From: Acinetobacter phage EAb13
DNA length: 64,000 nt
Sequence record: OQ717042.1
Strand: one strand, 5' to 3'
The position numbers and the translations under genes are program-made. How positions within the stretch are numbered: position 1 is the stretch's first letter; every line of letters begins with the position of its first letter. The notes beneath the pieces are model-generated. The model was given only the letters and a program-made list of their open reading frames with translations, did no database searches and was not told the origin of the DNA. Below, piece after piece: positions 5,950 through 40,489 of this stretch.

Positions 5950-6755
5950 ATATCATTGATGGAAACAACCAGTTCTTCATCAATATGAGCCGTGCGTTGA
6001 ATGCTCAAGACTTAGCTCGTCGCTGTTTTGAACTACACCGTGGCTATGACATTGTATACTGGACCTTTGACGGACTAGACTCACGAAAACCTCGTCGTGA
6101 CTTATATGCTGGATATAAAGACACAGTATCCCGTCAAAAAGCCAAGACTGATACTAACCGATACGAGCTGCTAAAGAATTTTAAGCATCGTGATTTACCT
6201 GCAGAGGGCGGTGTCATTGTCCTAGAAATACCATTTTTTGAAGCCGATGACGTGATTCGTAAATTAGTCATGCATCACGCCAATGGTGACAACCTCATCA
6301 CCATATCTTCAAATGATGCCGATTTACTGAACCTGACACAGTACAAAGGTGTGACACAGCCACAAGCTAAGCTACCTGCAGTGTGCCCACACCCGCACTT
6401 AATACCAATCTACAAAACACTGGTTGGTGATACTGGGGATAACATCAAGGGCCTAAAAGGTTTTGGTGAGAGTGCTTGGGCCAAACTGTCGGAAGGTGAC
6501 CTACGTTTAATTACGTCCTGTCTGATAAATAAGATACCTATCAATGAAGATAGCGTAATGGATGATGAAAAGCTGAAAGCTAAGTTAATAGAACATTGGG
6601 ATTCTGTTGCGTTATGGTATAAGCTAGTTGACTATATTGACATTCCAGACGATGCTATCCAAGCTAACTTGAGAATACATCCACGGAAAACTCCAAAAAA
6701 CCCTGTGGCGTTTACTGATGTAAAACGACCAAGCATTTCAATGGATAAGCTATGA
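5937..6755 (+). CDS. 5'-3' exonuclease / flap endonuclease (FEN, Pol I 5'-exo family)
   Basis: Motifs IIDGNN, FEADDV, SSNDADL and the helix-hairpin-helix GDTGDNIKGLKGFG typical of the T4 RNase H/T5 D15/Pol I 5'-nuclease family. Confidence 0.8.
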   Translation: MQRINIIDGNNQFFINMSRALNAQDLARRCFELHRGYDIVYWTFDGLDSRKPRRDLYAGYKDTVSRQKAKTDTNRYELLKNFKHRDLPAEGGVIVLEIPFFEADDVIRKLVMHHANGDNLITISSNDADLLNLTQYKGVTQPQAKLPAVCPHPHLIPIYKTLVGDTGDNIKGLKGFGESAWAKLSEGDLRLITSCLINKIPINEDSVMDDEKLKAKLIEHWDSVALWYKLVDYIDIPDDAIQANLRIHPRKTPKNPVAFTDVKRPSISMDKL

Positions 6756-7297
6756 GCACATACACGTTGAACCGTAATAATCCTGATGTGATGAATATTT
6801 CAGGTAAACCAGCCATTCAAGCCGCTAGTCCAGATGGTAAATCTATCTTGCTGGCACTGATTGCCTTCGCTAAAGAGGAATCAGACAAAGGTACTTACTT
6901 ACGTTATGTACCAGATAGCAAAGCATGGACCGATGTTAATGGTCGAATTGTTCTATTTAACGTAGCTGAAACAGAAACCACTTCTGCAGAAGCAATCCAG
7001 TTGGTAAAAGAGTTCTCTAAAAAAACTGGATATGAACCTCCTGTCAAAACTCAGGTTTCAGAAGGTGGCACCCTCGCAACCGATAACGGTGAGCCTATCG
7101 CAATTAGCACCCGTGCTATTGAAGAAAGCTCAAGCGACCAAGACGACGTATCTGCAGTAAATGCAGAAGTCATCGGTGTTGACCATGAAAGCAAAAAAGT
7201 AGAACAAGAACCAGTAGTAGAAAAAGAAACGGTTGCCAAACGTGCTGCCAAGGCTACAAAACCAGCTACAGATTCAGCCACTGAATCACAGCAATAA
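6752..7297 (+). CDS. hypothetical acidic protein (181 aa)
   Basis: ATGA start/stop overlap with upstream gene; E/D-rich C-terminus. Confidence 0.55.
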   Translation: MSTYTLNRNNPDVMNISGKPAIQAASPDGKSILLALIAFAKEESDKGTYLRYVPDSKAWTDVNGRIVLFNVAETETTSAEAIQLVKEFSKKTGYEPPVKTQVSEGGTLATDNGEPIAISTRAIEESSSDQDDVSAVNAEVIGVDHESKKVEQEPVVEKETVAKRAAKATKPATDSATESQQ

Positions 7298-7322
7298 ATA
7301 GAAACGGCCCTTATCAAGTGAT

Positions 7323-7352
7323 AAACTCTCGTCATCTGACGAGAGTTTTTTA
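7323..7352 (+). terminator. rho-independent terminator
   Basis: AAACTCTCGTCA-tc-TGACGAGAGTTT followed by TTTTATT. Confidence 0.7.
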
Positions 7353-7354
7353 TT

Positions 7355-9454
7355 ATGGCTAATGTTATTGACCTTTTTACCAGAAAGATTAAAGACCTTC
7401 TGGTGGGTTCAGACCTTGGTGCTAACCCACACGTTTTTAAAGATGTAAAGATTCCAGTAGGTAACTTACCTTCCAACTATCGTGACATTGAAGCTCTTAC
7501 ATTAGAACAAATTTCAGAGCTGGCACTTGGTATGAACCCTAACGGTGGTAACTATTCAGAGGAACCACCGATTGTTTATGAAAATCTGGTGGAACGTTTC
7601 CCTGCAGACTGCTGGACCGTAGATGGTGTACGCAGTATGTCATTCTGTGTGGTCGGTGAAAAGGATGATGGCTTCGATGTTTACTGGACTTCACGTCGTA
7701 AAAATGACTTTGCTGCAGTCATCTGGTTTAGTGAAGACTTAAACATGCACCCATACCTAGCGTATGAAACTAAGCGTGACTACCGTGGCTGTACCTTATC
7801 ATTTTCCATTGACCTAGAAGGTCAAGTACCAAGTATCTCAGACGAGAAGCTAGGCTTGGTTATGACTGTCATGACTGTAAACAGTTATGGTCAGTTCATC
7901 CCTCAATATCTACGCCTTGCCAACTTCGCAGACCCAGCTACATTGACTGACACCCATGCTGACATTACGATCAACTGGGACACGGCCAAGGCTGGGTTCT
8001 ATGCCGACACTAATTTCCCCAAAACAAACATCCAACGTATCTTTATTGGGTGCTTAACCAATGGCTTTGACATTGATAGCACTCAACCATTGCCTGCAGC
8101 AGAAACTGCAGCTATGAAAATCACAAATATGCGCTGCACTGGTGAACAGAGTAAGTTTATCCGTCGGACAATGGCTGTGCCACAGCACACGATTGGCATG
8201 TGTACCAGTTATGATGATAGCTATAACGTAAACCCTTACCGTATCATCAAGAACTGCTTCATGCTTGGCTATCGCGGCCACGTGAACCATTACTGTGGTA
8301 TGTCTCATTACTACAACCAGAAATGGGATGAGTCACAGCTTCGCTTTGTGGTAACCAAGGTTGAGGACCGACCACAATACAGTCTCATCAATAAAGAGAC
8401 TACTTTGTGGCATAAGTACATGGCTAAAGCCTGCAAGAAAATGTACATGCTGCCAATTTTTTCTGTGTCTTATGAAATGTTTTCGGAAGCTGCAGAATTA
8501 TCTTGGACTCAACGTGACTGGAACGATAACTATGGCCGTACAGGTTATGAGCCACCAAGTTATTTATTAAGCCCATGTATCCCAGAAGCCATGAACTGGT
8601 TACAGCAAGTATTTATTGAGTTTGCAGCTATTTCTGCGGGTGAAGGGTTAGTACCGCACCTGCAGGTAGGTGAACCATGGTGGTGGATTAATAGTGACGG
8701 TAAACCTTGTATTTATGATTACCCTACACGGGTTAAATTTAATGCTGAGACAGGGTTATTTGCGCCAGAAATCCCTAACCGTATGGACACACACTTACTT
8801 GAACAATCACCTTACAAAGAATTTGCTGCATTCTTGCGTAAGGAATTGGGTAATTCTGTTGTGGCCGTGCGTACAGCAGTGAAACAGGTTTATCCAGAAG
8901 CATTGGTTACAACACTATTTTTCTTACCTTCCATCTTGGATGAAGAAACCAGTGGTATTGCTTCAACGATTAACTATCCAGTAGAGCAGTACAAGTACCC
9001 TAACCTTGACTTTATCCAGACTGAAACCTATGACTGGTTGATTATTGGTAAATTTAACAAGGCTTTACGTGGTTTTACTTCTGCCATTGATGAGTTAGGA
9101 TACCCACCAGACTTGGTACACTACCTGCTTGGCTTTGTCCCAGATGATTTCTTGGGCAAGCTAATTATCCCTAACTATGATCTTAAAAAGGACGGGGTAA
9201 AGGTCTGGCAGTCTATCATGGGTAATGCTTACCTTGGTAAAGAATACAATGTGGCTAAGCAGTATATCTGGGCATACAACCAAGTTATGCGTGATGGTCT
9301 GGTTATCCAGCCAGAGCTGTTCTTGCGTAAGTTCTGGATATTGAATAGCCTGTATTTGAGTCAGGTCCGTGAAGGTGAAGTGTTGGGCACACCAATTGAT
9401 AACCTCCCTTGGAACCCTGTGCGTCCACCACAGCCAGAAACTCCAAATGTATAA
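7355..9454 (+). CDS. putative tail fibre/receptor-binding protein, paralogue 1 (699 aa)
   Basis: N-terminal ~60 aa (DLLVGSDLGANPHVFKDVKIPVGNLPSNYRDIEALTLEQISELAL) is recognisably homologous to the N-termini of ORFs 10467 and 11575; large W/Y-rich C-terminal region. Confidence 0.4.
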   Translation: MANVIDLFTRKIKDLLVGSDLGANPHVFKDVKIPVGNLPSNYRDIEALTLEQISELALGMNPNGGNYSEEPPIVYENLVERFPADCWTVDGVRSMSFCVVGEKDDGFDVYWTSRRKNDFAAVIWFSEDLNMHPYLAYETKRDYRGCTLSFSIDLEGQVPSISDEKLGLVMTVMTVNSYGQFIPQYLRLANFADPATLTDTHADITINWDTAKAGFYADTNFPKTNIQRIFIGCLTNGFDIDSTQPLPAAETAAMKITNMRCTGEQSKFIRRTMAVPQHTIGMCTSYDDSYNVNPYRIIKNCFMLGYRGHVNHYCGMSHYYNQKWDESQLRFVVTKVEDRPQYSLINKETTLWHKYMAKACKKMYMLPIFSVSYEMFSEAAELSWTQRDWNDNYGRTGYEPPSYLLSPCIPEAMNWLQQVFIEFAAISAGEGLVPHLQVGEPWWWINSDGKPCIYDYPTRVKFNAETGLFAPEIPNRMDTHLLEQSPYKEFAAFLRKELGNSVVAVRTAVKQVYPEALVTTLFFLPSILDEETSGIASTINYPVEQYKYPNLDFIQTETYDWLIIGKFNKALRGFTSAIDELGYPPDLVHYLLGFVPDDFLGKLIIPNYDLKKDGVKVWQSIMGNAYLGKEYNVAKQYIWAYNQVMRDGLVIQPELFLRKFWILNSLYLSQVREGEVLGTPIDNLPWNPVRPPQPETPNV

Positions 9455-9463
9455 GAGAATGCC

Positions 9464-10465
9464 ATGCCTGAATATACCTTAACACCTATCCCAGATATGG
9501 CTTTATATGTGGATGGAATCCCAGCGATTGCCCCAGCCAGTAACATTGGGGCTGCAGTCTTAAATGACTTTTACCATTATTTATTGAACCCCAGCACTGG
9601 TAATAGTGTTGGGGTAACCTTACGTTATGTTCATCCGAGTTCATCTTGGATTCTACCAAATGGTGAACCAGCGCTTTTTAATTTAGGCATGGCAGATGAT
9701 GTGTTCTTTGAGATCATGACTCAGATTAAAGCGTATGCTAAAGCCAATTACTTGGTCACACCTTTAGGTTCTTTATGGGGTTATCTTGCCACAGATGCAG
9801 GTAATTATATTGAAGTGACTGAGGATGAGCTGATTGAGCTTAAACCTCAACTGGCTGTAGGCGCTGGCCGTGAAGTTTATTATCAGTCAAATCTGGATGA
9901 AGATTTTTCTGTGAGTAGTATCTATTCTGAGAAGGGTAAATTTTTATTGCCTGACAGAAAAGATGTATTTCAGGATTATGCTTTTGGTTCTTTAGAGTTG
10001 AATGTTGCGCCAACCACATTAGAATTTAAAATGTGGAAATTGTTGTATGCTATTGATACGGAAGAATTTTTTGTTAAAAGAACAGATCGTTTTGATCTTG
10101 CAAACATTCTTTTTGAAAACAATGTCACTAGAGTATCCTTGGCATTGGACCCACAGAACCGTCCACAAGTAGCCTACACTGCAAATGATAAAGTTTACCT
10201 GTACTGGTACAGTGAAAATGAATCTCGATACCTGAATATGGAAATTCCAAATGCTAAAAATGCTTACTTGGCTCAAATCAATCCAGCCAACTATGCAGAT
10301 GTAATTTTGGCATATCAGAAAGGTCCAACCTTAGCTTTTCTAAAATATACAGAAAGCTATGAATTTGAAAGGGTTGTGATGAATACTTTGGATGAAAATT
10401 TAGAGCTGTACCAAGCTGGTCTAACCAATACTGGTAAGTTTCAGTGGAAATTTTTAGGAAAATAG
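9464..10465 (+). CDS. hypothetical protein in the fibre cluster (333 aa)
   Basis: ORF with AAGAGA RBS; sits between the paralogous fibre-like genes. Confidence 0.5.
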   Translation: MPEYTLTPIPDMALYVDGIPAIAPASNIGAAVLNDFYHYLLNPSTGNSVGVTLRYVHPSSSWILPNGEPALFNLGMADDVFFEIMTQIKAYAKANYLVTPLGSLWGYLATDAGNYIEVTEDELIELKPQLAVGAGREVYYQSNLDEDFSVSSIYSEKGKFLLPDRKDVFQDYAFGSLELNVAPTTLEFKMWKLLYAIDTEEFFVKRTDRFDLANILFENNVTRVSLALDPQNRPQVAYTANDKVYLYWYSENESRYLNMEIPNAKNAYLAQINPANYADVILAYQKGPTLAFLKYTESYEFERVVMNTLDENLELYQAGLTNTGKFQWKFLGK

Positions 10466-10466
10466 C

Positions 10467-11567
10467 ATGGATAATATCCCAGAAAAAACCACGATTAAGT
10501 CAAGAACATACGAGTTTTTTAAACTCGTTTTGACTATGAACAAAACAAACCCTGCTTGGGGTGATGTGAAAATCCCTGCAGGTAATTTCCCAAAGGGATT
10601 AGAACATTGTGAAGCCTTAACCATTGCTCAAATTGCCCAGATTCTACAAATTACAGTGAAGAAAAAGCTGCAAGATATTGTAGATAACATGCATGGTGGC
10701 GGTGGCAGCACTGGTGGCGGTGACGATGGTGGTGAAGGCTCAGTGACTGAACCAGTAGGTTGCGCTGGGTCCATTAACACTTTTAAAGCTGCTTATATGA
10801 CCGATGGTGGTATGTATCAGATGTTTGTAAATGATGAGGAATTTACAGGCAGTCATTGGTTATATAGAAACAACCTGTTCAAAGAATATTTAGCCCAGCG
10901 TGGTGTTGACTTTAATGCTTACGATGAAAATGGAAACCCAGTACAAATGGATTCCAATGGTCGTTATGACGCAGCCCGTATTGGTGAATTTGTTAATACC
11001 TCAAATCAGTATGTGAAAATACGAATAGCGGTAATTGATGCTGGTTCCATTAGTGAATTTAAAGCCCCAATTAACCCTGCAGCCATGTGGAATAATGAAT
11101 CATATGAATTAACAGTTTGTTTGGCACCGCAAAAAACAGTTGCTGCAGATGCTCATTGTGCTGTGATACCTCAAGATCAAATCAATGCGCTAGACCCAAA
11201 TGGTGTTTATACTCAGTATTTAGACAAGGCTGATAACCCATATGGAATTGAATTGCTCAACCCATATCAATTCTACATTACTGCAAATGGTGAGCCAGTC
11301 CTTCCATACAGAGGTGGCGGTGACGCTCTTTGGGGTACTGAACAAGACCCTAACTTACTCATTGGTGCTGAACCAGATGGAACTATAAAAATTATCAATC
11401 TAAAAGAAGTACCAATGGTTGTAAGAATCTGTTCAAGAACGGCAATACCGCCAATGATTCAGCCTATTTATAAACCAGCATTGAGTTCTAGCATATCAAA
11501 TATGTTGATTCATACAGATGAGTATGGCTATCAAACTTGTATAATCAAGCTAGGACCAATTAATTGA
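10467..11567 (+). CDS. putative tail fibre/receptor-binding protein, paralogue 2 (366 aa)
   Basis: N-term WGDVKIPAGNFPKGLEHCEALTIAQIAQIL matches the shared module; followed by a Gly-rich linker HGGGGSTGGGDDGGEGS and a distinct C-terminal domain. Confidence 0.4.
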   Translation: MDNIPEKTTIKSRTYEFFKLVLTMNKTNPAWGDVKIPAGNFPKGLEHCEALTIAQIAQILQITVKKKLQDIVDNMHGGGGSTGGGDDGGEGSVTEPVGCAGSINTFKAAYMTDGGMYQMFVNDEEFTGSHWLYRNNLFKEYLAQRGVDFNAYDENGNPVQMDSNGRYDAARIGEFVNTSNQYVKIRIAVIDAGSISEFKAPINPAAMWNNESYELTVCLAPQKTVAADAHCAVIPQDQINALDPNGVYTQYLDKADNPYGIELLNPYQFYITANGEPVLPYRGGGDALWGTEQDPNLLIGAEPDGTIKIINLKEVPMVVRICSRTAIPPMIQPIYKPALSSSISNMLIHTDEYGYQTCIIKLGPIN

Positions 11568-11574
11568 GATCAAT

Positions 11575-12444
11575 ATGAGCACAACCAAAATCATGACAAG
11601 ACGAGTGGCTGATCTAATCACCCCGTCTGATTTAGGTGAAAACCTATTAAAATTCAATCAAGTAATTTTACCTTGTGGGCGTATGCCTGCAGGGTATGAG
11701 ATCGTTGAGGGTATGACGTTGAGCCAGATTGCAGATGTAATTATTGAACATTTAGATGTTGCTGGCCTTATCCCAGACCTAAGTGGTGGCGGTACTCCAA
11801 GTGAAGGCACACCGACAGATTCTGTCACCTTCAATTACACCTTCAATGATGGGGCCACTATTCCTTTAGATGATGTTGAAATTCTAATGTTTGATGGTTC
11901 TGACACTATGCGTGTAAATGATACCTTCGAGTTAGATCATAACCCATCACAACCTAACTATTTTATGGGTATTACTACTGGACCAAAATGGGTGTTCTAT
12001 AACTTCCATCCAAGTAATGCACCAATTAAGATTGCCATTCGTCTGATTCCTGAAAATCAGAACATGTTACAAAATCTTCAATTGACTGGAAATACTACTT
12101 TCAAATGGAAAGAGGAAAACAAAGCCTATGTAGGAACCTTACTTCCATTCCCTAAACCACAGCTTTCAGATGTAACTTATGACCCTTCATCTGGTGTTCA
12201 TGTACTGATTGAAGGTACTGCTTTGAACCTCAAAGATGGGGCAGAATATGAAGCATATGTCACATTTATGAGAACAGATATTAACCAGATGGTGGTTTTA
12301 CGATCTGCAGACACCATTACTTCTGCAAATAAAAACTTCACTATTGGTGGAGATATCCCAGTAGATATGGGGCCATACTATGTTTCTTTACAGCTTAAAG
12401 ATACCACTGGTTGGCGTGATGTTGTAGAAGCTGAACTACTCTAA
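11575..12444 (+). CDS. putative tail fibre/receptor-binding protein, paralogue 3 (289 aa)
   Basis: N-term DLITPSDLGENLLKFNQVILPCGRMPAGYEIVEGMTLSQIADVI matches the shared module; linker SGGGTPSEGTPTDS; distinct C-terminus. Confidence 0.4.
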   Translation: MSTTKIMTRRVADLITPSDLGENLLKFNQVILPCGRMPAGYEIVEGMTLSQIADVIIEHLDVAGLIPDLSGGGTPSEGTPTDSVTFNYTFNDGATIPLDDVEILMFDGSDTMRVNDTFELDHNPSQPNYFMGITTGPKWVFYNFHPSNAPIKIAIRLIPENQNMLQNLQLTGNTTFKWKEENKAYVGTLLPFPKPQLSDVTYDPSSGVHVLIEGTALNLKDGAEYEAYVTFMRTDINQMVVLRSADTITSANKNFTIGGDIPVDMGPYYVSLQLKDTTGWRDVVEAELL

Positions 12445-12529
12445 ACTTACATGTTCATTTAGCAGAAAGTATTAAAAGTATACAGCCTAGTATGATATTA
12501 TCAGCACATCAACTCAGGATGTGCTGAAA

Positions 12530-12955
12530 ATGTTTTTAAAATACATTGCAATCAGTTTTCTGTTGAGTGTCTTGAGCATAAATGCAACAGTAATGGCTCA
12601 AACTAAAAACGACAGTCCAGCAACTACTTTCGTTCTTACCTATGGTAACGAATTTACGTTTGCATTGTGTGTTTTAGTATTGATATTGTCTAGTTGGCTT
12701 AGCATTAAGCTACCATCCGACGAGACAGTAAAGCCAGAAATGTCCAGTCAAGCTAAGATACTTGCAGCTCTAACTGGCGGAATTTTAGCGTTTATTTATT
12801 CGCTACATAAAGATCAGGGCCTAACCCTTATGAATCCAATCTGGATTGCTGTTGCTGCTATTGTGCTTCCCGTTACAATTCTAACTTTACGCAGCAAATT
12901 TAAAGGCTACACTGATATTGTAGACTTAAATAAAACGCAAAATAAGGGTGACTAG
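12530..12955 (+). CDS. multi-pass membrane protein, holin candidate
   Basis: 3 hydrophobic segments; ATG 12530 with AGGA RBS; an in-frame GTG at 12521 lies in a hairpin. Immediately upstream of a second membrane protein and the endolysin. Confidence 0.45.
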   Translation: MFLKYIAISFLLSVLSINATVMAQTKNDSPATTFVLTYGNEFTFALCVLVLILSSWLSIKLPSDETVKPEMSSQAKILAALTGGILAFIYSLHKDQGLTLMNPIWIAVAAIVLPVTILTLRSKFKGYTDIVDLNKTQNKGD

Positions 12956-13259
12956 GATGCCAATTAACCTTTACACCATGTTTTGGGCCGCTGTAGGTAT
13001 ACTAAGTCTTATCGGCCTTTACATGTTCAACTCAAAACCAAGCTTCCTGAACTTTATTACAAAGCGGGAATATTTGGTTGCTTTCCTTATTGCAGCAGTT
13101 TTTGGTATGCGTGAGACTTTTCCAGTCGCATGGATAATCGTAGGGGTAACCCTTGTGGCTATGTTTCGTCAATACCCGCAATACCTAAAAACATGTTTCA
13201 TGCATAAGCAACAAGAACACCATGGGCAGGGGCATAATTACCAGCATAGAAAGTCATAA
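12948..13259 (+). CDS. membrane protein (3 predicted TM), holin/antiholin candidate
   Basis: Overlaps upstream stop; hydrophobic segments AAVGILSLIGLYMF, VAFLIAAVFG, AWIIVGVTLVAMF; His-rich C-terminus. Confidence 0.45.
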   Translation: MTRMPINLYTMFWAAVGILSLIGLYMFNSKPSFLNFITKREYLVAFLIAAVFGMRETFPVAWIIVGVTLVAMFRQYPQYLKTCFMHKQQEHHGQGHNYQHRKS

Positions 13260-13280
13260 ACATATCTCATATGTTATATT

Positions 13281-13310
13281 ACCCTCATCACTTGATGAGG
13301 GTTTTATTTT
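13281..13310 (+). terminator. hairpin plus T-tract between membrane-protein gene and endolysin (attenuator/terminator)
   Basis: ACCCTCATC-actt-GATGAGGGT followed by TTTATTTT; it overlaps the TTG start chosen for the endolysin. Confidence 0.35.
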
Positions 13311-14040
13311 GTCTAAGCAAACACGTGAACATTTTCAGGAATTTCTGAAAGCTAAAGGTTTTTATACTGGAAATATTGATGGCATCATTGGTTTAAGGAC
13401 TAAAAGCGCTATTCTAAATTGCTTCCAGTGTAAAACTGCAACTCCAATTACTGACGTTGAATTATTCCAGTTTGCCAAGCAACTTGGTGATACCAACACA
13501 GTACGCATCCGTACTGTTGCCAAGGTTGAATCAGATGGCTCAGGCTGGTTCAATGATGGTCGCCCAAAAATTTTGTATGAACGTCACAAGTTCTGGAAGT
13601 ATAACGATGATGCCACAGCACCAAAGTCTACGTTCTTTAACTACCCAGATGCTGGTAATTACACCATTGATGCTGATAAAAATGGTGTCAATGACTCATA
13701 CGACAAACTTTTAAAAGCTTGTGAGTATGACCCAATGGGTGCTTTCATGTCAGTCTCAATGGGTGCCTTCCAAGTTATGGGTTTCTATTTCAAGGAAATG
13801 GGCTATGCCACACCTTGGGAAATGCTCTATGACTGTGCCCGTTCTGAAAAAGCCCAGTACCAGTTGCTGGTCAACTACATCGTAATGAATAAATTGCAGA
13901 AAGCTTTCTTGGCTATTTCTGGAAAACCAGACACTTGCCGTATGTTTGCGTCAGGATACAATGGTAAAAATTACGCTAAGTATAATTACCATGGCAACTT
14001 GGCTTCTGCTTATTTATACTATTTGAACAAGGTTAGATAA
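13309..14040 (+). CDS. endolysin: N-terminal peptidoglycan-binding domain plus C-terminal N-acetylmuramidase-like domain
   Basis: FLKAKGFYTGNIDGIIGLRTKSAILNCFQ resembles PG_binding_1; VAKVESDGSGWFNDGRPKILYERHKFW resembles the phage muramidase family motif (kVESgG..F..dgrp.ILFErH). Start uncertain: TTG 13309 after GAGGG, or ATG 13222 overlapping the upstream gene. Confidence 0.65.
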   Translation: MSKQTREHFQEFLKAKGFYTGNIDGIIGLRTKSAILNCFQCKTATPITDVELFQFAKQLGDTNTVRIRTVAKVESDGSGWFNDGRPKILYERHKFWKYNDDATAPKSTFFNYPDAGNYTIDADKNGVNDSYDKLLKACEYDPMGAFMSVSMGAFQVMGFYFKEMGYATPWEMLYDCARSEKAQYQLLVNYIVMNKLQKAFLAISGKPDTCRMFASGYNGKNYAKYNYHGNLASAYLYYLNKVR

Positions 14041-33060: not shown

Positions 33061-33094
33061 AAATAAAAATACCGCCAGCTGGCGGTATTTTTTA
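33061..33094. terminator. bidirectional rho-independent terminator at the convergent junction
   Basis: AAATAAAAAT-ACCGCCAGCTGGCGGT-ATTTTTTAT: perfect palindrome flanked by an A-run and a T-run; the fibre gene stop lies in the T-tract. Confidence 0.85.
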
Positions 33095-34087
33095 TGAAAC
33101 AAATTCACTTGGATTATAGTTGCCAGCGATTTGGCTCACGACACGTTCAATCATTAAACCTTCAATATGAAATTGGTTACCTGCTTCATTATCACCATTT
33201 GGATAGAAACCAATAACAGCACCGCCACTTGTATTTGCAATGAAGCTGATAGAGTATCGAGTCATTGTTCCAGTCAAAACCAATGGGTGAGGTGTAGTCA
33301 CAGCAAAGTTACCATCTGCTAATCGGATGACACAACGCATTTTTTTACCTGCAGTTGCAGCCATGGCGTAGAAGCTGTAAATATATTGAACCCCAGCTAC
33401 CAGTTGAATGTTCTCGTAGGTGTCTGGTGTATCGTCAAAATAAATATAAGCATCTGGGTTAGCAGCATTGGTACATTCAATTGTTAAGCGTTTGCCACGG
33501 ACATGTTTTAATAAACCATCACTGACTGTGGCCGTAACATCCGCTTTGGCCCAGCTTGCAACACCCACAAAGTCTTGGATATATTTTGAGAGCAGGTTAA
33601 TACCCGCGCCAGCTTTACTAAGTAAGCCATACATCAAACCACGAACCTGTGACACAGCACCGATGGTTGCAGCTACACTATGTTCATTTTCAGCAGAATA
33701 AATATCCCCACTCAAGGCCACAATACCTGTCTGACCAACTGCAGCAGCGCGAATATTATTCATCGTGATATTGGTAATTAAACCTTGGGCATTGACGGTG
33801 ATCGAAGGTGTTTGGATGGTGGACATATATGTTCCAGCAACCACCCCAGAATTTGCCAAGGTTAATATTGCAGACTTATTCCCAGAACCATCAAAGCTGA
33901 CAGAACCTGTGACCGAACCAGAAAAGGAAAGGGTTATAGGTGCGGCCCACTTACTGGCAGATACAGCGTTGTCTGTAGAATTTAATTTATTTTGGTTCAG
34001 GTTTTTAATATCTTCACCGACTTTGGCAGCAAGCTGGTTTACACCTACTGCTACCTGTTCGGCCGTTAATGCTTCAATTGTCTCAGC
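33092..34087 (-). CDS. distal tail fibre protein
   Basis: Immediately downstream of the J-like gene; Gly/Ser-rich repeats SGSVTGSVSFDGSGN; ATG 34087 (MAETIE) preferred because the track start 34117 lies inside a terminator hairpin. Confidence 0.5.
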   Translation of the reverse strand, partial: AETIEALTAEQVAVGVNQLAAKVGEDIKNLNQNKLNSTDNAVSASKWAAPITLSFSGSVTGSVSFDGSGNKSAILTLANSGVVAGTYMSTIQTPSITVNAQGLITNITMNNIRAAAVGQTGIVALSGDIYSAENEHSVAATIGAVSQVRGLMYGLLSKAGAGINLLSKYIQDFVGVASWAKADVTATVSDGLLKHVRGKRLTIECTNAANPDAYIYFDDTPDTYENIQLVAGVQYIYSFYAMAATAGKKMRCVIRLADGNFAVTTPHPLVLTGTMTRYSISFIANTSGGAVIGFYPNGDNEAGNQFHIEGLMIERVVSQIAGNYNPSEFVS

Positions 34088-34103
34088 CATAAGTTGGACC
34101 CAT

Positions 34104-34129
34104 AAAAATACACCCATATTAATGGGTGT
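34104..34129 (-). terminator. rho-independent terminator between J-like gene and fibre gene
   Basis: On the minus strand ACACCCAT-taat-ATGGGTGT followed by ATTTTTAT. Confidence 0.6.
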
Positions 34130-34142
34130 ATTCTATCAGAGA

Positions 34143-37100
34143 TTAAGTGGAGCTGTTGTTATAAACAGCAGTTGGGTCAAAACCGTTGGCTGATACCGCT
34201 GGTACAATCACCTCAGCCCATTCAGAATCTAAAGCATTGTATTCATAATCTGGTGGGTCGCCAATCACACCACTCTTATCTGAGACACGAATCTTGATCT
34301 TGGCACCAACAAAGGTTTCATCTGGTGCAAACAATACGCCACCAATACTGTTATCCACTTCATAATAAATATCAAAGATACCTGAATTAGCTGGTGTACT
34401 TGCTGCCTTGCTAGGTAATGTAATATATCCATAAACACGATAATCACCGTCATTATGATCTGAAATAATCGCAAAGAATGGTGACCAAGCATATTGCTCT
34501 CTAAAAGCCTGCTCAAACTGTGGGTACTGACTATAATTTGGAATCTGTACAACCATGTGAACAAATACCATACCTTCTGGTGCAGTACGAAGATTCCAGC
34601 TCTGTTTAGCGCGAGTATATGACTCAATACCAAGGATTACTGGTTTAGGATATTTAGCAACTGGTAAGCCGCCAGAATCATCACCGTAATAAGTCCAAAT
34701 ATCAGTTTTTTGAGTATCCACAAAGCCAGAGTTTGCAGCGCTTGTAGCTTCATAACGTAAGCCCATTTTGTAAGTACCAGCACCAACATATGGAATATCG
34801 AAGTAAGTGGCACTTACACTGATAGGTTGGTTAGCGCTTGATCTATTTGGAGCTGAGTGATTGACATAAGCTTCGTTATAAATCAAACCAGTGTATGGTT
34901 GGAAGTTAGCTTGCGTAAACGCAAAACGAATACTTTTAGTTGGTGCGTAATATTCAGCAGAAATAAACTTAGGTAAACCATTTTCCTGAGCTTTACCAAG
35001 CTGGACGTTATCCATAATCAATGGCTCACCAGCTTCACCAGCTTTGTTGAAAGGTGTAATTTTCAATTTCAAACTGGTTGTCTCAGGGAAGGCTGGGGCC
35101 AAGACACCTTCTGTGTCAAACAAAATGGTTTCTCGCGCTTCACCAGATTCTTTGTTTACCCAAGTTACTTTGTATTTGTATGCTGGGTCAATGATATTGA
35201 ACTTAATACCGTAGGTTACTTGGCCTAAAGCATTTGACAAATCACGGAGCCACAGCTGCACATCAAACGGTGTGCTTGGGATACGGTCACGCTTATAGGT
35301 TAAATCCAAGCTGTTGTACTTGAAGTTTACCAAGGTTGGGTCATTAATATTGTCAATAGCTTGGTACTTAATCGGTGCAACCAAAGCACCTTTAAAAGTA
35401 AACAATTCGCCTTGGGCAACATCTGACGAGTCAGCTTGTTCAATACTTAGGACACGGAAAATTTTAGGTTCCCCGTACACGCCACCCGCTAGGCCAATAG
35501 GTGTTTCTGAAATTGTATTCAGGTACTGATTCACCTCATCGACTTTTGTATTGTCTGTCATAACCAGTTGATGTGGGTTCAGGCTCATAACAGGCACACT
35601 TAAAATACCATCTAAGGTATGCATGTACATGGTATAAGTCTCTTGGGTTCCCATTTCAACCAAAGCATCACGAAGGGTAACTGTACGAGTTTCACTATCG
35701 TAGCTGGAAATACGAGTCCCTAAACCCCAGTCCATTTCCTTGTCGAAAATGTAGAAATTGTCATATAAATCAACAACATGACCTAAACGCGGTTGAGAGA
35801 AAGTTACAAACGTATTTTCCTCTTTATTTGTGTACATCAAGTAAACTGCTTGACGAATAGCTTCACTCAGATTGGTTGCACCAACTGATTGGAAAGCGTA
35901 AGGAATAATACCGTTCACCGCTTGGCTTTCTTCATCCAATAAAACACGACGGTCCTCTTGGTAATCATTTGCAGCATTGGCAAAAATCACACGGATGAAG
36001 TTGTATCGTGATGAAAGGTCAGAACGGTAATAATTCAAGCCAGTTTGGAATGCAGTTTCTGTACTCACAAAAAACTTAGGTGCTTTTGGCTTATCAATGA
36101 AGAAACGATATACCCCGAACATTTCACGGCTAGTTGCATGGAATGAACCAAGAACGTACTTTAAGTATTCGTCAATGTCACGTTCAGCGCCAATGGCTTC
36201 ATTAAAAGTATGACGAGGTTTCATATCACCATTAAGGTCTGGTACTTTCTCATCACAATACTGTATAGCTTCCATCAGGCTGGCGTTATCAACACGTAGC
36301 TGTGGCTCACTAGCTCTTTTACCCCAATCGCGGTTCATGATGATCTCACGCGCAATCAGAGCATTGTTATCTGTCCATGCACGTTTAAAACGACCATCCC
36401 AGACACCAGCCCAAGTTTTTGTGATTGGATTGTAGTTGACTGGCACTTCACACATGAAACCCATGATCTCAGCAGCAAAGTCAGGCACGTCGTCAAAACG
36501 GTCTGTATGCTGGGCCACAACTTGACACATAGCTGTTTTTGGATAAGCCTTTTCTGCAGCAGTGATTACACTCATACTTTCAAGGCTGATTGTCTTAGCT
36601 GAGTATTTCTTTTCCTCAGAAGTCAATTCTTTACTTTTACGAACTACCTGAATTTCCCAATCCTGATTAGTTTCACTATCATCAAAAATTGGAATGCTCA
36701 GTTCATAAATATAACCAGCGGTGGTTTTACCACTCACTACGATCATTTCATTTTGAATCTGAGCTGTAGTTGTTCCAGTTGGAAGCTGAGATAAATACTT
36801 TTCATAAAGGTCTACAGAATAGGCACGACGAATTAAACGACCATAACCGCCATTCTGGTATTGGATTTCAGTTTCTGCAGGAGTGTCTAAGTTACCCAAA
36901 TCTTCGGAAACAATGTTCTTGAGTTCTTTTAATGTCTTTAACTCAAATTCATATTGTTGAGCTTTAGACATAGCATCAAAGTCAAGACCTTGATCTTTGG
37001 CCGCTTGGCGAAGGGTAGCAACCTTACGCTTATATTGAATTAACGTTTCTGTAGTTTCATTCACATAGCGCCAGTTAGTTTCACCAACACGACGATATCG

Positions 37101-37532
37101 AATTTGGAAAATCACAGATGATTCATACGAGTTTTGACCATCACCAGCATACAATTGGTTAATCAAAATACGCACATCAATACTGGTAATAGCCCCACGA
37201 TATTCTGCAGGTGTAACAACAGTACGAACAACATCAGCAGGTAAAGATAACCCCAACGTAGAGTTAATAACCGAAGATTCACCACCTGAAAAATAGCGAA
37301 TAGGTTGGTCATCCATATAACCATGGCGAATGTTTACAGCCACATCTTGGAAGTTGTATTCCCCAGTCTCTGACACCAAAGCAATATTATTGATAAAGAA
37401 AGATTTTAAACCATCTTTTAATCCAAAAATGGTTCCTTCACACATACCAAATGCCAGCTCTACAATATCTTGGCTATATAAGTTATCGGCCGCAATCGTA
37501 GGGCTAGGCGGTTGTTTTTTCTTACCACCCAT
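34143..37532 (-). CDS. tail tip/host specificity protein J-like (1129 aa)
   Basis: N-terminus MGGKKKQPP...DNLYSQDIVELAFGMCEGTIFGLKDGLKSFFINN matches the lambda gpJ N-terminal pattern; follows gpI-like gene. Confidence 0.8.
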   Translation of the reverse strand: MGGKKKQPPSPTIAADNLYSQDIVELAFGMCEGTIFGLKDGLKSFFINNIALVSETGEYNFQDVAVNIRHGYMDDQPIRYFSGGESSVINSTLGLSLPADVVRTVVTPAEYRGAITSIDVRILINQLYAGDGQNSYESSVIFQIRYRRVGETNWRYVNETTETLIQYKRKVATLRQAAKDQGLDFDAMSKAQQYEFELKTLKELKNIVSEDLGNLDTPAETEIQYQNGGYGRLIRRAYSVDLYEKYLSQLPTGTTTAQIQNEMIVVSGKTTAGYIYELSIPIFDDSETNQDWEIQVVRKSKELTSEEKKYSAKTISLESMSVITAAEKAYPKTAMCQVVAQHTDRFDDVPDFAAEIMGFMCEVPVNYNPITKTWAGVWDGRFKRAWTDNNALIAREIIMNRDWGKRASEPQLRVDNASLMEAIQYCDEKVPDLNGDMKPRHTFNEAIGAERDIDEYLKYVLGSFHATSREMFGVYRFFIDKPKAPKFFVSTETAFQTGLNYYRSDLSSRYNFIRVIFANAANDYQEDRRVLLDEESQAVNGIIPYAFQSVGATNLSEAIRQAVYLMYTNKEENTFVTFSQPRLGHVVDLYDNFYIFDKEMDWGLGTRISSYDSETRTVTLRDALVEMGTQETYTMYMHTLDGILSVPVMSLNPHQLVMTDNTKVDEVNQYLNTISETPIGLAGGVYGEPKIFRVLSIEQADSSDVAQGELFTFKGALVAPIKYQAIDNINDPTLVNFKYNSLDLTYKRDRIPSTPFDVQLWLRDLSNALGQVTYGIKFNIIDPAYKYKVTWVNKESGEARETILFDTEGVLAPAFPETTSLKLKITPFNKAGEAGEPLIMDNVQLGKAQENGLPKFISAEYYAPTKSIRFAFTQANFQPYTGLIYNEAYVNHSAPNRSSANQPISVSATYFDIPYVGAGTYKMGLRYEATSAANSGFVDTQKTDIWTYYGDDSGGLPVAKYPKPVILGIESYTRAKQSWNLRTAPEGMVFVHMVVQIPNYSQYPQFEQAFREQYAWSPFFAIISDHNDGDYRVYGYITLPSKAASTPANSGIFDIYYEVDNSIGGVLFAPDETFVGAKIKIRVSDKSGVIGDPPDYEYNALDSEWAEVIVPAVSANGFDPTAVYNNSST

Positions 37533-37544
37533 AAGGGTACTCCA

Positions 37545-38315
37545 TTAAAATTCTGAACCAGTTCGGTACATACCGTTGTCAACTTGATTTAACATTGCCT
37601 TATCACCAGCTTGGATAAAGCCGTAATACTTATTCAGGTTTTGCGTTGGTAAATTTTCATCCACTTTACCTTTAAAATATGGTGAATTGATTGGGTCATC
37701 AATACCACTATACTTGCGGGATTCAACGTTAAAGCTGAATAAATGGAAACCAATTTTATATGTACCAAAAACAATCTGAATTGGAGTACCAATTTCACTG
37801 GTAGTTCGTGCACCAAAGGTACGGGAACTAAGGTTACCATCTTTATTTTCATTGACTTTTGGTGTTGGTGCCAATAACTGCATGATACCTGAGATCATCA
37901 TACCAAAACCCATACTCATTACCATGGTTGTGGCAGCACCAGCAATGGAAGCATAGGCACCTGTATACAAGGCTGGGGCCAAGTATGGGGCTACGATTGC
38001 GACAACAACCAAGACAACACCAATGACAATGTTTACCCAACCGCCACCGCCACCTGCACCATGATAGGTTGTTGGACTAACCTCATGTGCAGCAACAGGC
38101 ACGATATCAAACACATGCTTATCGTCAGCATTAGTCGGGTCATTTAATTCTGCCATGGTGTGCAATTGTTTAATTCTGACTGGGACAGGTTTAATTTTCC
38201 CATTCTCAGGATGTTGCACAGCCAATAATTTTAAAGCATCCAACGGAGTAGATGCTTCAACATTTACACTTGCAGGGAATAAATGCTGCAAGTCTTCATG
38301 AAATCTTAGAATCAT
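37545..38315 (-). CDS. tail assembly protein I-like
   Basis: Gly-rich GAGGGGGW followed by long hydrophobic stretch; position between K-like and J-like genes. Confidence 0.65.
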   Translation of the reverse strand: MILRFHEDLQHLFPASVNVEASTPLDALKLLAVQHPENGKIKPVPVRIKQLHTMAELNDPTNADDKHVFDIVPVAAHEVSPTTYHGAGGGGGWVNIVIGVVLVVVAIVAPYLAPALYTGAYASIAGAATTMVMSMGFGMMISGIMQLLAPTPKVNENKDGNLSSRTFGARTTSEIGTPIQIVFGTYKIGFHLFSFNVESRKYSGIDDPINSPYFKGKVDENLPTQNLNKYYGFIQAGDKAMLNQVDNGMYRTGSEF

Positions 38316-38626
38316 TTAAGTTCTCTCATAACAAAGCCACGTCGGATGTAATATTCTGCGAACTCATCTTTGCTATTATAGATTCTATGTCTATGATCTG
38401 GATACGCTAAAAAAGATAAATAATCATCCAGACTCAAATTAATATCGTTACTTGGATGAGAATGCCAGAAGTAAGCTATCTGGTCCTTGTACTTTTCAAT
38501 TTCAGCTTCATCAATAGCAAAGAAATTTTGTGGCTCTTTATGAACGTTCGGCACTTCAACTTGAGTGCCGTCCTTCAAAATAAATCCACAGCGTTCAACC
38601 TCTGGACTCCAAAACTTACTCAACAT
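38312..38626 (-). CDS. JAMM/MPN metalloprotease domain protein (lambda gpK N-terminal half equivalent)
   Basis: Perfect JAMM motif E...HSHPSNDINLSLDD (H-x-H-x7-S-x2-D). Confidence 0.7.
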   Translation of the reverse strand: MLSKFWSPEVERCGFILKDGTQVEVPNVHKEPQNFFAIDEAEIEKYKDQIAYFWHSHPSNDINLSLDDYLSFLAYPDHRHRIYNSKDEFAEYYIRRGFVMRELK

Positions 38627-39095
38627 ATTTAGCCACCTTTTGGTAATTTGGCATTAAATCAATTATGTTAAACCGTGGCACAGCTTGTTCAACATCACGG
38701 TGACGGGAAACCATTTGGATTCTACGCAACCATGCTGGTGTCAAAGAATCCTCTCGCGGCTCACGATCAATCAGTTGATGTAAAAATAACTGATTGCCAA
38801 GATAAATACCAACATGATTAATCACGCTATCATGGACAGCCATACTTAAAACATCACCAGCTCTCATATCTTTGATATCAACACTTGGTAAATGTTCCCA
38901 GTAATCTTCGCTATAAATTTTAGCAAATAAATCTAAGCGAGGGTCATAGAAATGTCTTGGGCGGGCGTAGTTCGGCAGGGCTACGCCACAGGCGCGTTCA
39001 AGCACAGTGGCTACAACTGAATAGCAATCAGATTCACCTTGAATATAAGGAAGCCCAAGCAAATCCTTATACACCTCATATGGGATGTAGTCCAT
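38616..39095 (-). CDS. NlpC/P60 cysteine peptidase domain protein (lambda gpK C-terminal half equivalent)
   Basis: Catalytic Cys in QGESDCYS and His in VINHVGIYLG. Confidence 0.7.
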   Translation of the reverse strand: MDYIPYEVYKDLLGLPYIQGESDCYSVVATVLERACGVALPNYARPRHFYDPRLDLFAKIYSEDYWEHLPSVDIKDMRAGDVLSMAVHDSVINHVGIYLGNQLFLHQLIDREPREDSLTPAWLRRIQMVSRHRDVEQAVPRFNIIDLMPNYQKVAKYVE

Positions 39096-39111
39096 AAAAA
39101 ATTCCTATAAA

Positions 39112-39594
39112 TCAAATATTTACGTGGAAGAACTCAGGTGGGTAATAGCCACGTGGCGGGAATCGTTGTGCCAAGTTGTCACCTAAACGACGTAAGGTTA
39201 AAGACACCTTGGTACTGATCATAGGAATCTGGTAAACCTTCCAAACGTCAGTCCGTACCACTTTACCTGTAGTTTCTGAATTAAACTCAGCTTCAATTTG
39301 ATAGCGAGTAACCAAAGCGCCTTCCAATTTCCCAGACACGGCCAGTTTGTTGAACATGGAGTCAGGGTTTGCAAGGTCCACGGTTGGTCGGCTTTTCTCA
39401 TCTGTTTGAGTCATCAAATCACCAGAGATAGCAAAATCTTGGTAAAGGTATGATTCATTTTGATATTTAAAATCAAAAGAGTCACAGATAAAAATATGCT
39501 GACCGTTGATCAGCTTAATTTTTAGCAAGTTAATTGTCGTTTTTTGTTGGAGGGAGTTTACCTCCAACAAATTCAATTCACTATTTTCACTCAT
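39112..39594 (-). CDS. minor tail protein (gpL/gpM-like position)
   Basis: ATG 39594 overlaps upstream stop as ATGAGTGA; lies between the tape measure and the K-like genes. Confidence 0.45.
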   Translation of the reverse strand: MSENSELNLLEVNSLQQKTTINLLKIKLINGQHIFICDSFDFKYQNESYLYQDFAISGDLMTQTDEKSRPTVDLANPDSMFNKLAVSGKLEGALVTRYQIEAEFNSETTGKVVRTDVWKVYQIPMISTKVSLTLRRLGDNLAQRFPPRGYYPPEFFHVNI

Positions 39595-40489
39595 TAATAT
39601 CACCCTTAGATAACTGTTGAAATGGGGTTTCAACTAATGTTAGTTCAATTGTTGGAAGGATACCAGAGTTAGCCATTGGCTTGGTCAACGTTAATGGTTC
39701 CTTGAAACGTACTGGGATTATTTCCCCAGCATATTCCCAATCAAATACTTTCTTCAAGCGATTTTGAATATAAAAAACTTCAAGTAATGCAGCATTACGC
39801 TCAGGCCAATAGCTGAAACTAAGTTCATCATTAGGTGTAGTGAAATACTGCAAACCATCTACAGAAACCTTAATGGTTCTTAAAGGTGGTTTATTGTCCT
39901 TGAAGATCATATTGTAGTTGCCACCCAAAGGTGCCACCAAAGTATCTTCACGATACTCCATTTCTACATCATAAAAACCACATGGGAAAGGTATAAGACC
40001 TTCCAAGTTTTCAGTAGGGTCAAAATAGAAATCAGTGTCAATAATTTCAATTAAGGAAATAGTAAATCCCTGAACACTAAAACCATTTGGGTTCTTTTTA
40101 GGCAAGCTAATTGGCTGTCCAAATCGTACCTTCACATCACCATAAACTGGATGAGGATAAACAAACGGTTTGTACATACCATGTTCTAAATAAAAAGCCT
40201 GCAGCTTAGCGTAGTTATACTCGTCAGGACAGTCAGTCAGGCCACCACCATTGTAAAACAAGGTAGAAAATTCTAACTCGAAGCTACGCATTGGCTTTAC
40301 TGTTTGAGAGAAAACATATTCCTGTGAACTGTTATTTTTCACGTTCGCATGAACGAATGGTTCCCTATAAGCAGTACCGAAATTGTGATTGGCCCAGATA
40401 AACCGCTTTAAGGTAGGGTCATCAATGACCCTACCTTTAAGGTTTTGACTGAAATCAAAAGTTTTAATTGGCATATTATTCGTTCGCAA
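39587..40489 (-). CDS. minor tail protein (distal tail, gpM/gpL-like position)
   Basis: 300-aa ORF overlapping the tape measure gene end by 14 nt. Confidence 0.45.
   Translation of the reverse strand: MRTNNMPIKTFDFSQNLKGRVIDDPTLKRFIWANHNFGTAYREPFVHANVKNNSSQEYVFSQTVKPMRSFELEFSTLFYNGGGLTDCPDEYNYAKLQAFYLEHGMYKPFVYPHPVYGDVKVRFGQPISLPKKNPNGFSVQGFTISLIEIIDTDFYFDPTENLEGLIPFPCGFYDVEMEYREDTLVAPLGGNYNMIFKDNKPPLRTIKVSVDGLQYFTTPNDELSFSYWPERNAALLEVFYIQNRLKKVFDWEYAGEIIPVRFKEPLTLTKPMANSGILPTIELTLVETPFQQLSKGDINE

Follow-up and report, generated by a model that had tools for sequence, protein, structure and literature searches.

The locus examined here raises the question of why three phage genes that share an N-terminal module, and no other detectable similarity, should lie together between replication and lysis genes, far from the operon that encodes the tail tip. 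The locus belongs to Acinetobacter phage EAb13 (OQ717042.1), and the window analysed is the whole stretch of 64 kb. Our results indicate that the segment 6752-12444 is probably a host-recognition cassette of the EAb13/StAb3/Mystique type of siphophage, encoding swappable receptor-binding proteins (RBPs) on a lineage-specific anchor. Interchangeable RBPs with a shared N-terminal docking module had already been proposed in the original prediction, made from the letters of the sequence. This proposal is supported by the match of one of the three proteins to the NCTSP proteins of phage N4, by a profile search that recovered the module in 41 protein clusters, and by the swapping of genes within a fixed slot.

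We designate as module A the N-terminal ~65 aa common to three open reading frames (ORFs, named throughout by their start coordinate): ORF 7355 (7355-9454, 699 aa), ORF 10467 (10467-11567, 366 aa) and ORF 11575 (11575-12444, 289 aa), all on the + strand. The three copies align in register. In BLASTP comparisons, ORFs 7355 and 11575 match with E=1e-10 (36% identity over 75 aa), ORFs 7355 and 10467 with E=1e-5, and ORFs 10467 and 11575 with E=2e-5. Local alignment of the first ~65 aa gave scores of 62-111, against shuffle means of ~21 (sd ~4, maximum 49), corresponding to z values of 11.4-20.6. Moreover, a search of all 64 kb, translated in six frames, with a hidden Markov model (HMM) of module A retrieved these three ORFs only (E 1e-32 to 1e-34), the next best match having E=0.19. 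Beyond module A, BLASTP detected no significant similarity among the three proteins. The predicted common module, at ~65 aa, and the mutually unrelated C-terminal domains are thereby confirmed. Glycine-rich linkers had also been noted behind the module in two of the proteins, and they are present as described, reading HGGGGSTGGGDDGGEGS in ORF 10467 and SGGGTPSEGTPTDS in ORF 11575. In ORF 7355, the module (subtype A1; residues 1-66) spans 7355..7552 on the + strand and is the proposed virion anchor.

The nature of the cargo is clearest in ORF 7355. Its receptor-binding body (7589..9298, + strand) consists of residues 79-266, which match Pfam NCTSP_N (PF23844; 108.5 bits versus a cut-off of 27, E=3.1e-31), and residues 276-648, which match TIM-barrel_NCTSP (PF23845; 298.4 bits versus a cut-off of 27, E=8.8e-89) over the entire model. 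In the PDB, residues 345-651 match residues 113-410 of N4 gp64 (9lc0_M, E=3.8e-40), and residues 229-321 match residues 323-416 of N4 gp65 (9lc0_I, E=5.1e-12). These N4 proteins (PDB 9LC0, 9YF4 and 9YF5) contain the same Pfam NCTSP domains as ORF 7355. Homology places ORF 7355, as a TIM-barrel protein, in the N4 gp65/gp64 non-contractile sheath family. The two Pfam matches rule out that it is a fibre, so that the description of all three genes as fibre-like fails for this one. Assignment to a non-structural enzyme family, which had been named as an outcome that would count against the RBP proposal, is not a fair test for ORF 7355, because its TIM barrel is enzyme-like and yet the family to which it belongs is one of virion RBPs.

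In N4, gp64 and gp65 form a heterodimer that builds a six-fold, receptor-binding non-contractile sheath, gp65 being the long-known receptor-binding protein (PMC13434306). The architecture of ORF 7355 is different. The N4 sheath combines a 1382-aa subunit of ten domains, with a C-terminal plug-binding part, and a 417-aa subunit, whereas ORF 7355 is a single 699-aa chain. Nothing in ORF 7355 aligns with the C-terminal domains by which gp65 holds the tail plug, and Pfam and PHROG scans of the neighbouring genes revealed no second NCTSP gene. In addition, N4 is a podovirus with a tail stub, while the long tail of the phage of ORF 7355 is that of a siphovirus and ends in a lambda-J-type tip, and the N4 proteins lack the module A that ORF 7355 carries.

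Bodies of the same type, 32-35% identical to ORF 7355 over ~570 residues (~79-651), occur in about 260 phage records. Most of these records are Vequintavirinae and Stephanstirmvirinae, in which the gene lies inside the tail-fibre operon and is annotated as a lateral tail fiber with glycosidase and deacetylase domains. In the Vequintavirinae, phi92-like phages and Stephanstirmvirinae, this 'glycan deacetylase' fibre (e.g. MaxBurger bas54_0034) belongs to a set of several RBPs carried by the phage. Unlike ORF 7355, the Vequintavirinae-type homologues are encoded within the baseplate and tail-fibre operon and have unrelated N-terminal regions. The module-A HMM found no match in the Vequintavirinae, Stephanstirmvirinae or N4 homologues of ORF 7355; tblastn alignments with Vequintavirus homologues that started at query residue 10, and would have implied a shared module A, are spurious at their N-terminal end. 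Since the same type of body stands behind differing N-termini in the Vequintavirinae and Stephanstirmvirinae, the N-terminus is the phage-specific part. ORF 7355 can accordingly be read as a lineage-specific N-terminus of 66 residues joined to a widely shared receptor-binding body, as would be expected of an RBP that is attached to the virion.

In the Mystique record (PQ438181), the 699-aa NCTSP homologue (locus L002, 2856-4956) is entered as two coding sequences, a 'hypothetical protein' and a 'putative capsid protein', and the exonuclease/B1 and ORF 10467 homologues are broken as well. Several annotations in the EAb13 group likewise label the NCTSP homologue as a capsid protein. The splits are probably assembly frameshift errors, and the capsid labels are probably misannotations.

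The relationship to N4 leads on to receptor genetics. N4, Vequintavirinae and phi92-like phages share a gp64-type 'glycan deacetylase' tail protein or tailspike, and none of them remains infectious on wecB and nfrB mutants, in which the N4 glycan receptor NGR is missing (PMC8594841, PMC8669472). StAb3, with 96% average nucleotide identity to EAb13, does not adsorb to a pgrD deletion strain, needs both pgrD and pgrF, and yields escape mutants that map to the PGR locus (PMC12507263). Among the products of this locus are PgrC, an NfrB-like synthase, and PgrF, a WecB-like epimerase, and the susceptibility of hosts to EAb13 and Mystique tracks an intact PGR locus (PMC12507263). Both host systems, NGR in E. 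coli and PGR in Acinetobacter, are thus exopolysaccharides made with an NfrB-type synthase and a WecB epimerase (PMC8669472, PMC12507263). The PGR study draws the parallel to the N4 receptor and names no phage receptor-binding protein (PMC12507263). Because ORF 7355 is an N4-type homologue in PGR-dependent phages and is the most conserved member of the cassette, we consider it the likely PGR binder, an assignment made from homology and correlation, and the protein may perhaps also modify PGR. The loss of capsule reduces infection and does not abolish it (PMC12507263, PMC12013898). The multi-receptor host range suggested by the original prediction is consequently not established, as the published genetics indicate a single essential receptor, the PGR glycan, and a modulating role for capsule.

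This assignment is of practical interest. EAb13 belongs to a group of unclassified ~77-82-kb siphophages with a very broad A. baumannii host range (PMC10508131, PMC12013898, PMC9228384, PMC12893723). EAb13, StAb3, Mystique and TCUP2199 are the broadest-host-range A. baumannii phages described, lysing ~85-91% of isolates, and are candidates for therapy. The PGR receptor was found genetically in 2025 without its phage binder; ORF 7355 is now nominated for this role, and the nomination is directly testable. The nomination also links the receptor systems of Acinetobacter and E. coli across a siphovirus, a podovirus and myoviruses.

To follow module A beyond the window, a profile built from the three window copies was run with HMMER against 1.84 billion representative proteins (E<=1e-3). 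We found 41 protein clusters with the module, which is N-terminal in 40 of them and begins at residue 1 in most. The proteins with an N-terminal module A range from 67 to 1007 aa. Behind the module come stretches of coiled-coil and fibre-like character with matches to tail-fibre genes annotated in other Acinetobacter phages, and the cargo includes CotH (P0026, P0027), BNR sialidase (P0032, P0041), SASA esterase (P0030), DUF4886 esterase (P0035) and DUF285 (P0010, P0038) domains, while many members have no Pfam match. A receptor-binding or glycan-active nature of the cargo is thus seen for ORF 7355 and for these CotH, BNR, SASA, DUF4886 and DUF285 homologues. A word-indexed protein search with the module-A alignment yielded one fragment, and pattern scans of IMG/VR yielded none at first and one locus on the second scan. 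No match was found in a pattern scan of species-representative bacterial genomes, which fits a lytic lineage.

A second module, which the original prediction had not mentioned, is found in the same cassette, bringing the total to two module families in five genes. Module B is a ~120-residue N-terminal module common to ORF 6752 (6752..7297, 181 aa; B1) and ORF 9464 (9464..10465, 333 aa; B2), both on the + strand (BLASTP E=2e-10, 30% identity over 122 aa). In B1, module B occupies residues 1-120 (6752-7111) and the rest is an acidic low-complexity tail; in B2, it occupies residues 1-125 (9464-9838) and is followed by a phrog_4950 'tail fiber' domain at residues 167-332 (9962-10459; model positions 24-190 of 192, E=1e-20). 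The cassette of the window therefore reads B1, a hairpin, A1 (the NCTSP protein), B2 (with the fibre domain), A2 (ORF 10467) and A3 (ORF 11575).

Contigs were recovered for eleven module-A proteins, and the slot was judged in those long enough to show the flanks. Wherever flanks are present, the gene order is that of the window: DUF2303, helicase, 5'-3' exonuclease, an ORF of 136-164 aa, the module-A gene or genes, holin-like ORFs, muramidase and DNA polymerase A. Several of these contigs are genome-sized (70-77 kb), and their GC content is 35-40%. Within this fixed synteny the A cargo differs among nine loci (L009, L010, L011, L014, L015, L017, L019, L020 and L022). The comparison with relatives for cassette swapping, which had been suggested as a check, thus revealed one fixed slot with cargo that changes from contig to contig. 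B1-type ORFs follow directly after the exonuclease in every relative examined with the HMM (L009, L011, L014, L015, L017, L019, L020 and L022), and B2-type ORFs are confined to cassettes with three A genes. One of the relatives, L020 (GCA_004565705.1, contig SMEP01000001.1, 74,096 bp), has a single module-A tailspike of 858 aa and lies inside a deposited bacterial or metagenome assembly.

Among close relatives, the best megablast match to 7000-12600 is fJoAci04 (97% identity, full length), followed by Mystique, vB_AbaS_TCUP2199 and fJoAci01 with 88-91% identity over 68% of the query. Compared with TCUP2199, A1 matches at 100% in the N-terminal module and 95% in the remainder, B1 at 87% and 85%, and A3 at 80% and 86%. 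B2 matches at 86% in its module and at 43% in the remainder, and A2 at 72% in its module with the domains of the remainder rearranged. In relation to TCUP2199-type phages, the NCTSP protein is hence the conserved member of the cassette, and ORFs 9464 and 10467 are the variable ones. At the sequence level, this pattern of a conserved ORF 7355 and diverged B2 and A2 cargo fits a conserved receptor combined with variable accessory targets.

Taken together, these data suggest the following arrangement. Module A, as the constant part, would attach otherwise unrelated domains for receptor binding or action on glycans to the tail, with the cargo held away from it by a flexible glycine-rich linker or a coiled coil. 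The C-terminal parts would be exchangeable, the relatives carrying other cargo in the same slot. ORF 7355, as the conserved primary RBP, would mediate adsorption to the PGR exopolysaccharide, while ORF 9464 (module B plus tail-fibre domain), ORF 10467 and ORF 11575 would act as accessory RBPs. As the C-terminal parts of these three proteins vary between close relatives, they would probably engage variable surface structures such as capsule. Module B probably also plugs into the tail. Attachment of the module-A proteins to the virion is something we infer from their domain layout. As a rule, RBPs attached to virions combine a conserved N-terminal module with variable C-termini. The Klebsiella KP32/KP34 'anchor-branch' RBPs, the Friunavirus tailspikes, CBA120 TSP1-4 and G7C gp63.1/gp66 have, like this cassette, a constant N-terminal module, variable glycan-active cargo, swapping at a fixed locus and several RBPs per virion, and anchor-only adaptor proteins exist in SP6/K1-5-type phages. 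Module A has no detectable sequence relation to the anchors of the KP32/KP34, Friunavirus, CBA120 and G7C systems. It also differs from KP32/KP34-type systems in its length of ~65 aa, its three paralogous subtypes, the accompanying module B, the slot between replication and lysis genes and the presence of ~70-aa genes that encode the anchor alone. A conserved anchor with swappable cargo is a well-known principle, and what is new is this anchor family, its slot, the anchor-only genes and the PGR assignment. Moreover, an anchor of ~65 aa in a fixed slot provides a defined junction for engineering, since relatives already bear capsule-type tailspikes, sialidases, esterases and CotH domains on module A.

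Several observations weigh against a cassette of tail-anchored RBPs. In the literature, including the TCUP2199, Mystique and StAb3 papers, we found no virion proteomics or tail-tip structure for the EAb13 group, and no enzymatic or binding activity of the NCTSP TIM-barrel family on NGR or PGR. The genes of the cassette lie outside the structural operon. Module A matched none of the described anchor families tested for (T7 gp17 N-terminal domain, P22 head-binding domain, T4 gp10-like) and no solved structure. The assignment of ORFs 10467 and 11575 as RBPs is argued from their architecture and their neighbours; AlphaFold2 models of both were computed from alignments of 5 rows and were unusable (predicted local distance difference test, pLDDT, 37 for ORF 10467 and 41 for ORF 11575), a beta-sandwich at ~195-289 of ORF 11575 scoring just 55-70, so that a fold could be assigned to neither. 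In addition, module A is not always accompanied by cargo, as complete ORFs of ~70 aa encoding the anchor alone occur in relatives. Finally, the existence of three conserved subtypes together with these anchor-only genes argues for three non-equivalent sockets, or for a joint complex, rather than for one common adaptor. The idea of docking to a common adaptor thus stands as regards the shared N-terminal module, but the anchors are of three kinds, which points away from a single adaptor.

The last two points deserve closer consideration. Clustering of module A gave three groups, each with members from several phages: A1 comprises the long tailspikes, with ORF 7355 adjoining, A2 includes ORF 10467 and A3 includes ORF 11575. 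ORFs consisting of module A alone (70-72 aa) are found at L010 3067-3282, L015 8781-8999, L017 9910-10125 (the same as L016 1475-1690) and L018 57-275 and 277-495. They are intact, flanked by other genes and located inside the cassette of related phages, and divergent pairs keep the same end residue and show dN/dS ratios of 0.41-0.59. As many as 10 of the 41 module-A clusters are this short, although some of these may be truncated at contig ends. Module A is thus an autonomous unit that is at times kept without cargo, in line with a structural role in the tail, and a function of the anchor-only ORFs as plugs or placeholders is possible. As for the composition of the cassettes, single long A1-type tailspikes occur in six loci (L009, L011, L014, L019, L020 and L022), three A genes occur in the window type, L015 and L017, and all complete cassettes seen have either one B and one A gene or two B and three A genes. 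A tentative extension of the RBP cassette, which we regard as having a modest chance of being right, is a system of sockets. B1, in all phages, and B2, in multi-RBP phages only, would form or extend sockets to be filled by A1, A2 and A3, and the ~70-aa anchor-only proteins would plug sockets that are free of cargo. The sockets that bear cargo would then determine host range, with moves between the one-B-one-A and two-B-three-A states by cassette exchange, and a conserved hairpin that sequesters a ribosome-binding site would gate expression at the 5' edge.

The same observations could also be explained if module A were a co-assembly handle, such that A1, A2 and A3 chains, or anchor-only stand-ins, formed a hetero-oligomer sitting on the tail as a unit, possibly on the module-B proteins. 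The conservation of the three subtypes across phages, the several cassettes with exactly three A genes, in which anchor-only ORFs fill positions (L015, L017 and L018), the intact state, shared end point and dN/dS values of these ORFs in divergent pairs, and the two fixed cassette compositions would all be in keeping with such a complex. However, the six cassettes with a single A1 gene indicate that A2 and A3 are not obligatory partners, and in L015 and L018 there are two copies of type A3 while A1 is missing, which breaks a rule of one of each. On balance we regard co-assembly as unlikely, and independent, swappable RBPs remain our preferred interpretation.

Less probable still is that the A proteins are not virion components at all, and instead are soluble proteins acting on glycans or on the cell surface and expressed with the lysis genes, module A targeting, for example, a host or lysis partner. 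In favour of such a role, the holin-like and muramidase genes follow immediately after the cassette and the tail operon is distant, enzyme families are frequent among the cargo domains, and no proteomic evidence places the proteins in virions. Against this, homologues of the ORF 7355 body have been resolved in the virion of N4, long coiled-coil and fibre segments typical of tailspikes are found in many module-A proteins and match tail-fibre genes of other Acinetobacter phages, phrog_4950 and phrog_4176 tail-fibre genes lie within the same cassette, and the module layout is the standard one for RBPs attached to virions. Least likely of all, if only by a little, is that the A proteins form an N4-like non-contractile sheath along the tail tube, or a collar at the head-tail joint, rather than RBPs at the tail tip: ORF 7355 does belong to a 'non-contractile tail sheath' family and the N4 sheath surrounds the tail tube, hanging from the head-to-tail adaptor (PMC13434306), but the N4 sheath spans a 45-nm stub and not a long flexible tail, and in the 3.2 Å helical map of the tail of Mystique, a close relative, only the tube protein was modelled and no extra layer was reported (PMC12013898), which lowers the probability of a location along the tube but not that of a collar.

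With RBPs on swappable anchors as the favoured reading, the boundary of the cassette can be considered. B1 is the final gene of the helicase/exonuclease unit. Between its stop codon and the ATG of ORF 7355, a terminator scan detected a terminator-like hairpin (7323..7348, + strand) with an 11-bp stem, a 4-nt loop and a T-run ending at the ATG; the 3' arm of the hairpin holds the GAGAG Shine-Dalgarno-like sequence of ORF 7355. A hairpin with a T-run is present at the same position in 10 of 10 related loci checked (among them L003 at ~2820-2850, L009 at ~9975-10000, L011, L014, L015, L017, L019, L020 and L022), where stem sequences differ and pairing is kept. In the related loci the 3' arm always contains GAGG or GGAGG, the would-be ribosome-binding site of the next gene. 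The conservation of pairing suggests a combination of transcription termination and translational masking at an early/late boundary. Given the hairpin between B1 and ORF 7355, B1 therefore closes the upstream replication unit and the RBP cassette opens a new one.

Module B itself has few relatives. ORF 6752 (B1) has no Pfam or PDB match, and the module-B profile found nothing in the PDB and PHROGs except one weak match to a 'virion structural protein' (E=0.001). A domain of ~120 aa with an acidic tail at the end of an exonuclease operon could be taken for a replication protein resembling single-stranded DNA-binding protein, but this identity is countered by the fusion of module B to a tail-fibre domain in ORF 9464. 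That domain is more widespread. The phrog_4950 domain is a free-standing ORF of 196-197 aa after a phrog_4176 fibre gene in L010 (3-1236), L015 (7175-8765) and Xanthomonas/Xylella podophages, and a tblastn search with the ORF 9464 domain hit annotated tail-fibre genes in 49 other phage records, mostly of Xanthomonas, Xylella and Stenotrophomonas. The fibres of the Xanthomonas/Xylella podophages Prado and XAJ24 and of the N4-like RiverRider are 25-30% identical to residues 165-332 of ORF 9464. These fibres lack module B, whereas the domain of the window is fused behind it. Judging from the comparison with TCUP2199, B2 has a conserved front and a variable back. We also considered ORF 9464 as the counterpart of the 'short tail fiber' gene downstream of the Vequintavirus/Justusliebigvirus homologue and found no similarity. 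An apparent similarity between ORF 9464 (residues 3-78) and ORF 10467 (residues 214-286), with an uncorrected E of 1e-4, was rejected, as it was gone with composition correction and lay only just above shuffles (28.9 bits versus a maximum of 26.2).

ORFs 10467 and 11575 are identical (100%) to EAb13 CDS0058 and CDS0059, and full-length searches with both retrieved their own close relatives only, making them orphans outside the group. ORF 10467 comprises module A2 (residues 1-75), the glycine-rich linker (76-92), a block shared with TCUP2199 ORF48 (93-222) and an EAb13-type-specific C-terminus (223-366); residues 92-244 match phrog_14345, of unknown function. The TCUP2199/Mystique counterpart (L003 5966-7057) has in common with ORF 10467 (10743-11564) the anchor and one block of ~130 aa, with 60% identity. 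This block is central in ORF 10467 and C-terminal in the counterpart, which has an extra block ahead of it, and the C-terminal 144 residues of ORF 10467 are unique to the EAb13 type. The comparison reads as domain shuffling inside one gene between close relatives. ORF 11575 consists of module A3 (residues 1-66), a Gly/Pro/Ser/Thr linker (70-83) and a beta-rich C-terminal part. A Foldseek search of its model against the PDB gave no match at E<=1e-3, and only generic Ig/FN3-like sandwiches at E>=4e-3. For module A, a profile of 12 sequences found no PDB match at E<=10, and the best Pfam and PHROG values (0.027 and 0.0052, each for one member) do not amount to matches.

Regarding the setting of the cassette, the gene annotation bears out the predicted location on the + strand between replication and lysis genes and away from the J-type operon. 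Upstream on the same strand lies the helicase and 5'-3' exonuclease block. Directly downstream, in the window and in all relatives, is the lysis block (12521..14040, + strand in the window), with two small membrane-protein-like (holin-like) ORFs and a muramidase endolysin (Pfam Muramidase, 6e-38; PHROG endolysin). The J-type tail-tip operon occupies the - strand at 33092-46766, ~20 kb from the A genes, and encodes, at 33-47 kb, the tape measure and minor tail proteins, Dit-like and tail-assembly proteins (37545-40489), a J-type protein of 1129 aa (34143-37532) and an Ig/fibre-like protein of 341 aa. This last protein (33092-34117, - strand), whose gene immediately follows the J-type gene, matches Ig-like, head-decoration and long-tail-fibre-distal PHROGs and contains neither module A nor module B. 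It is a candidate for a further host-contact protein and a possible partner of the anchors.

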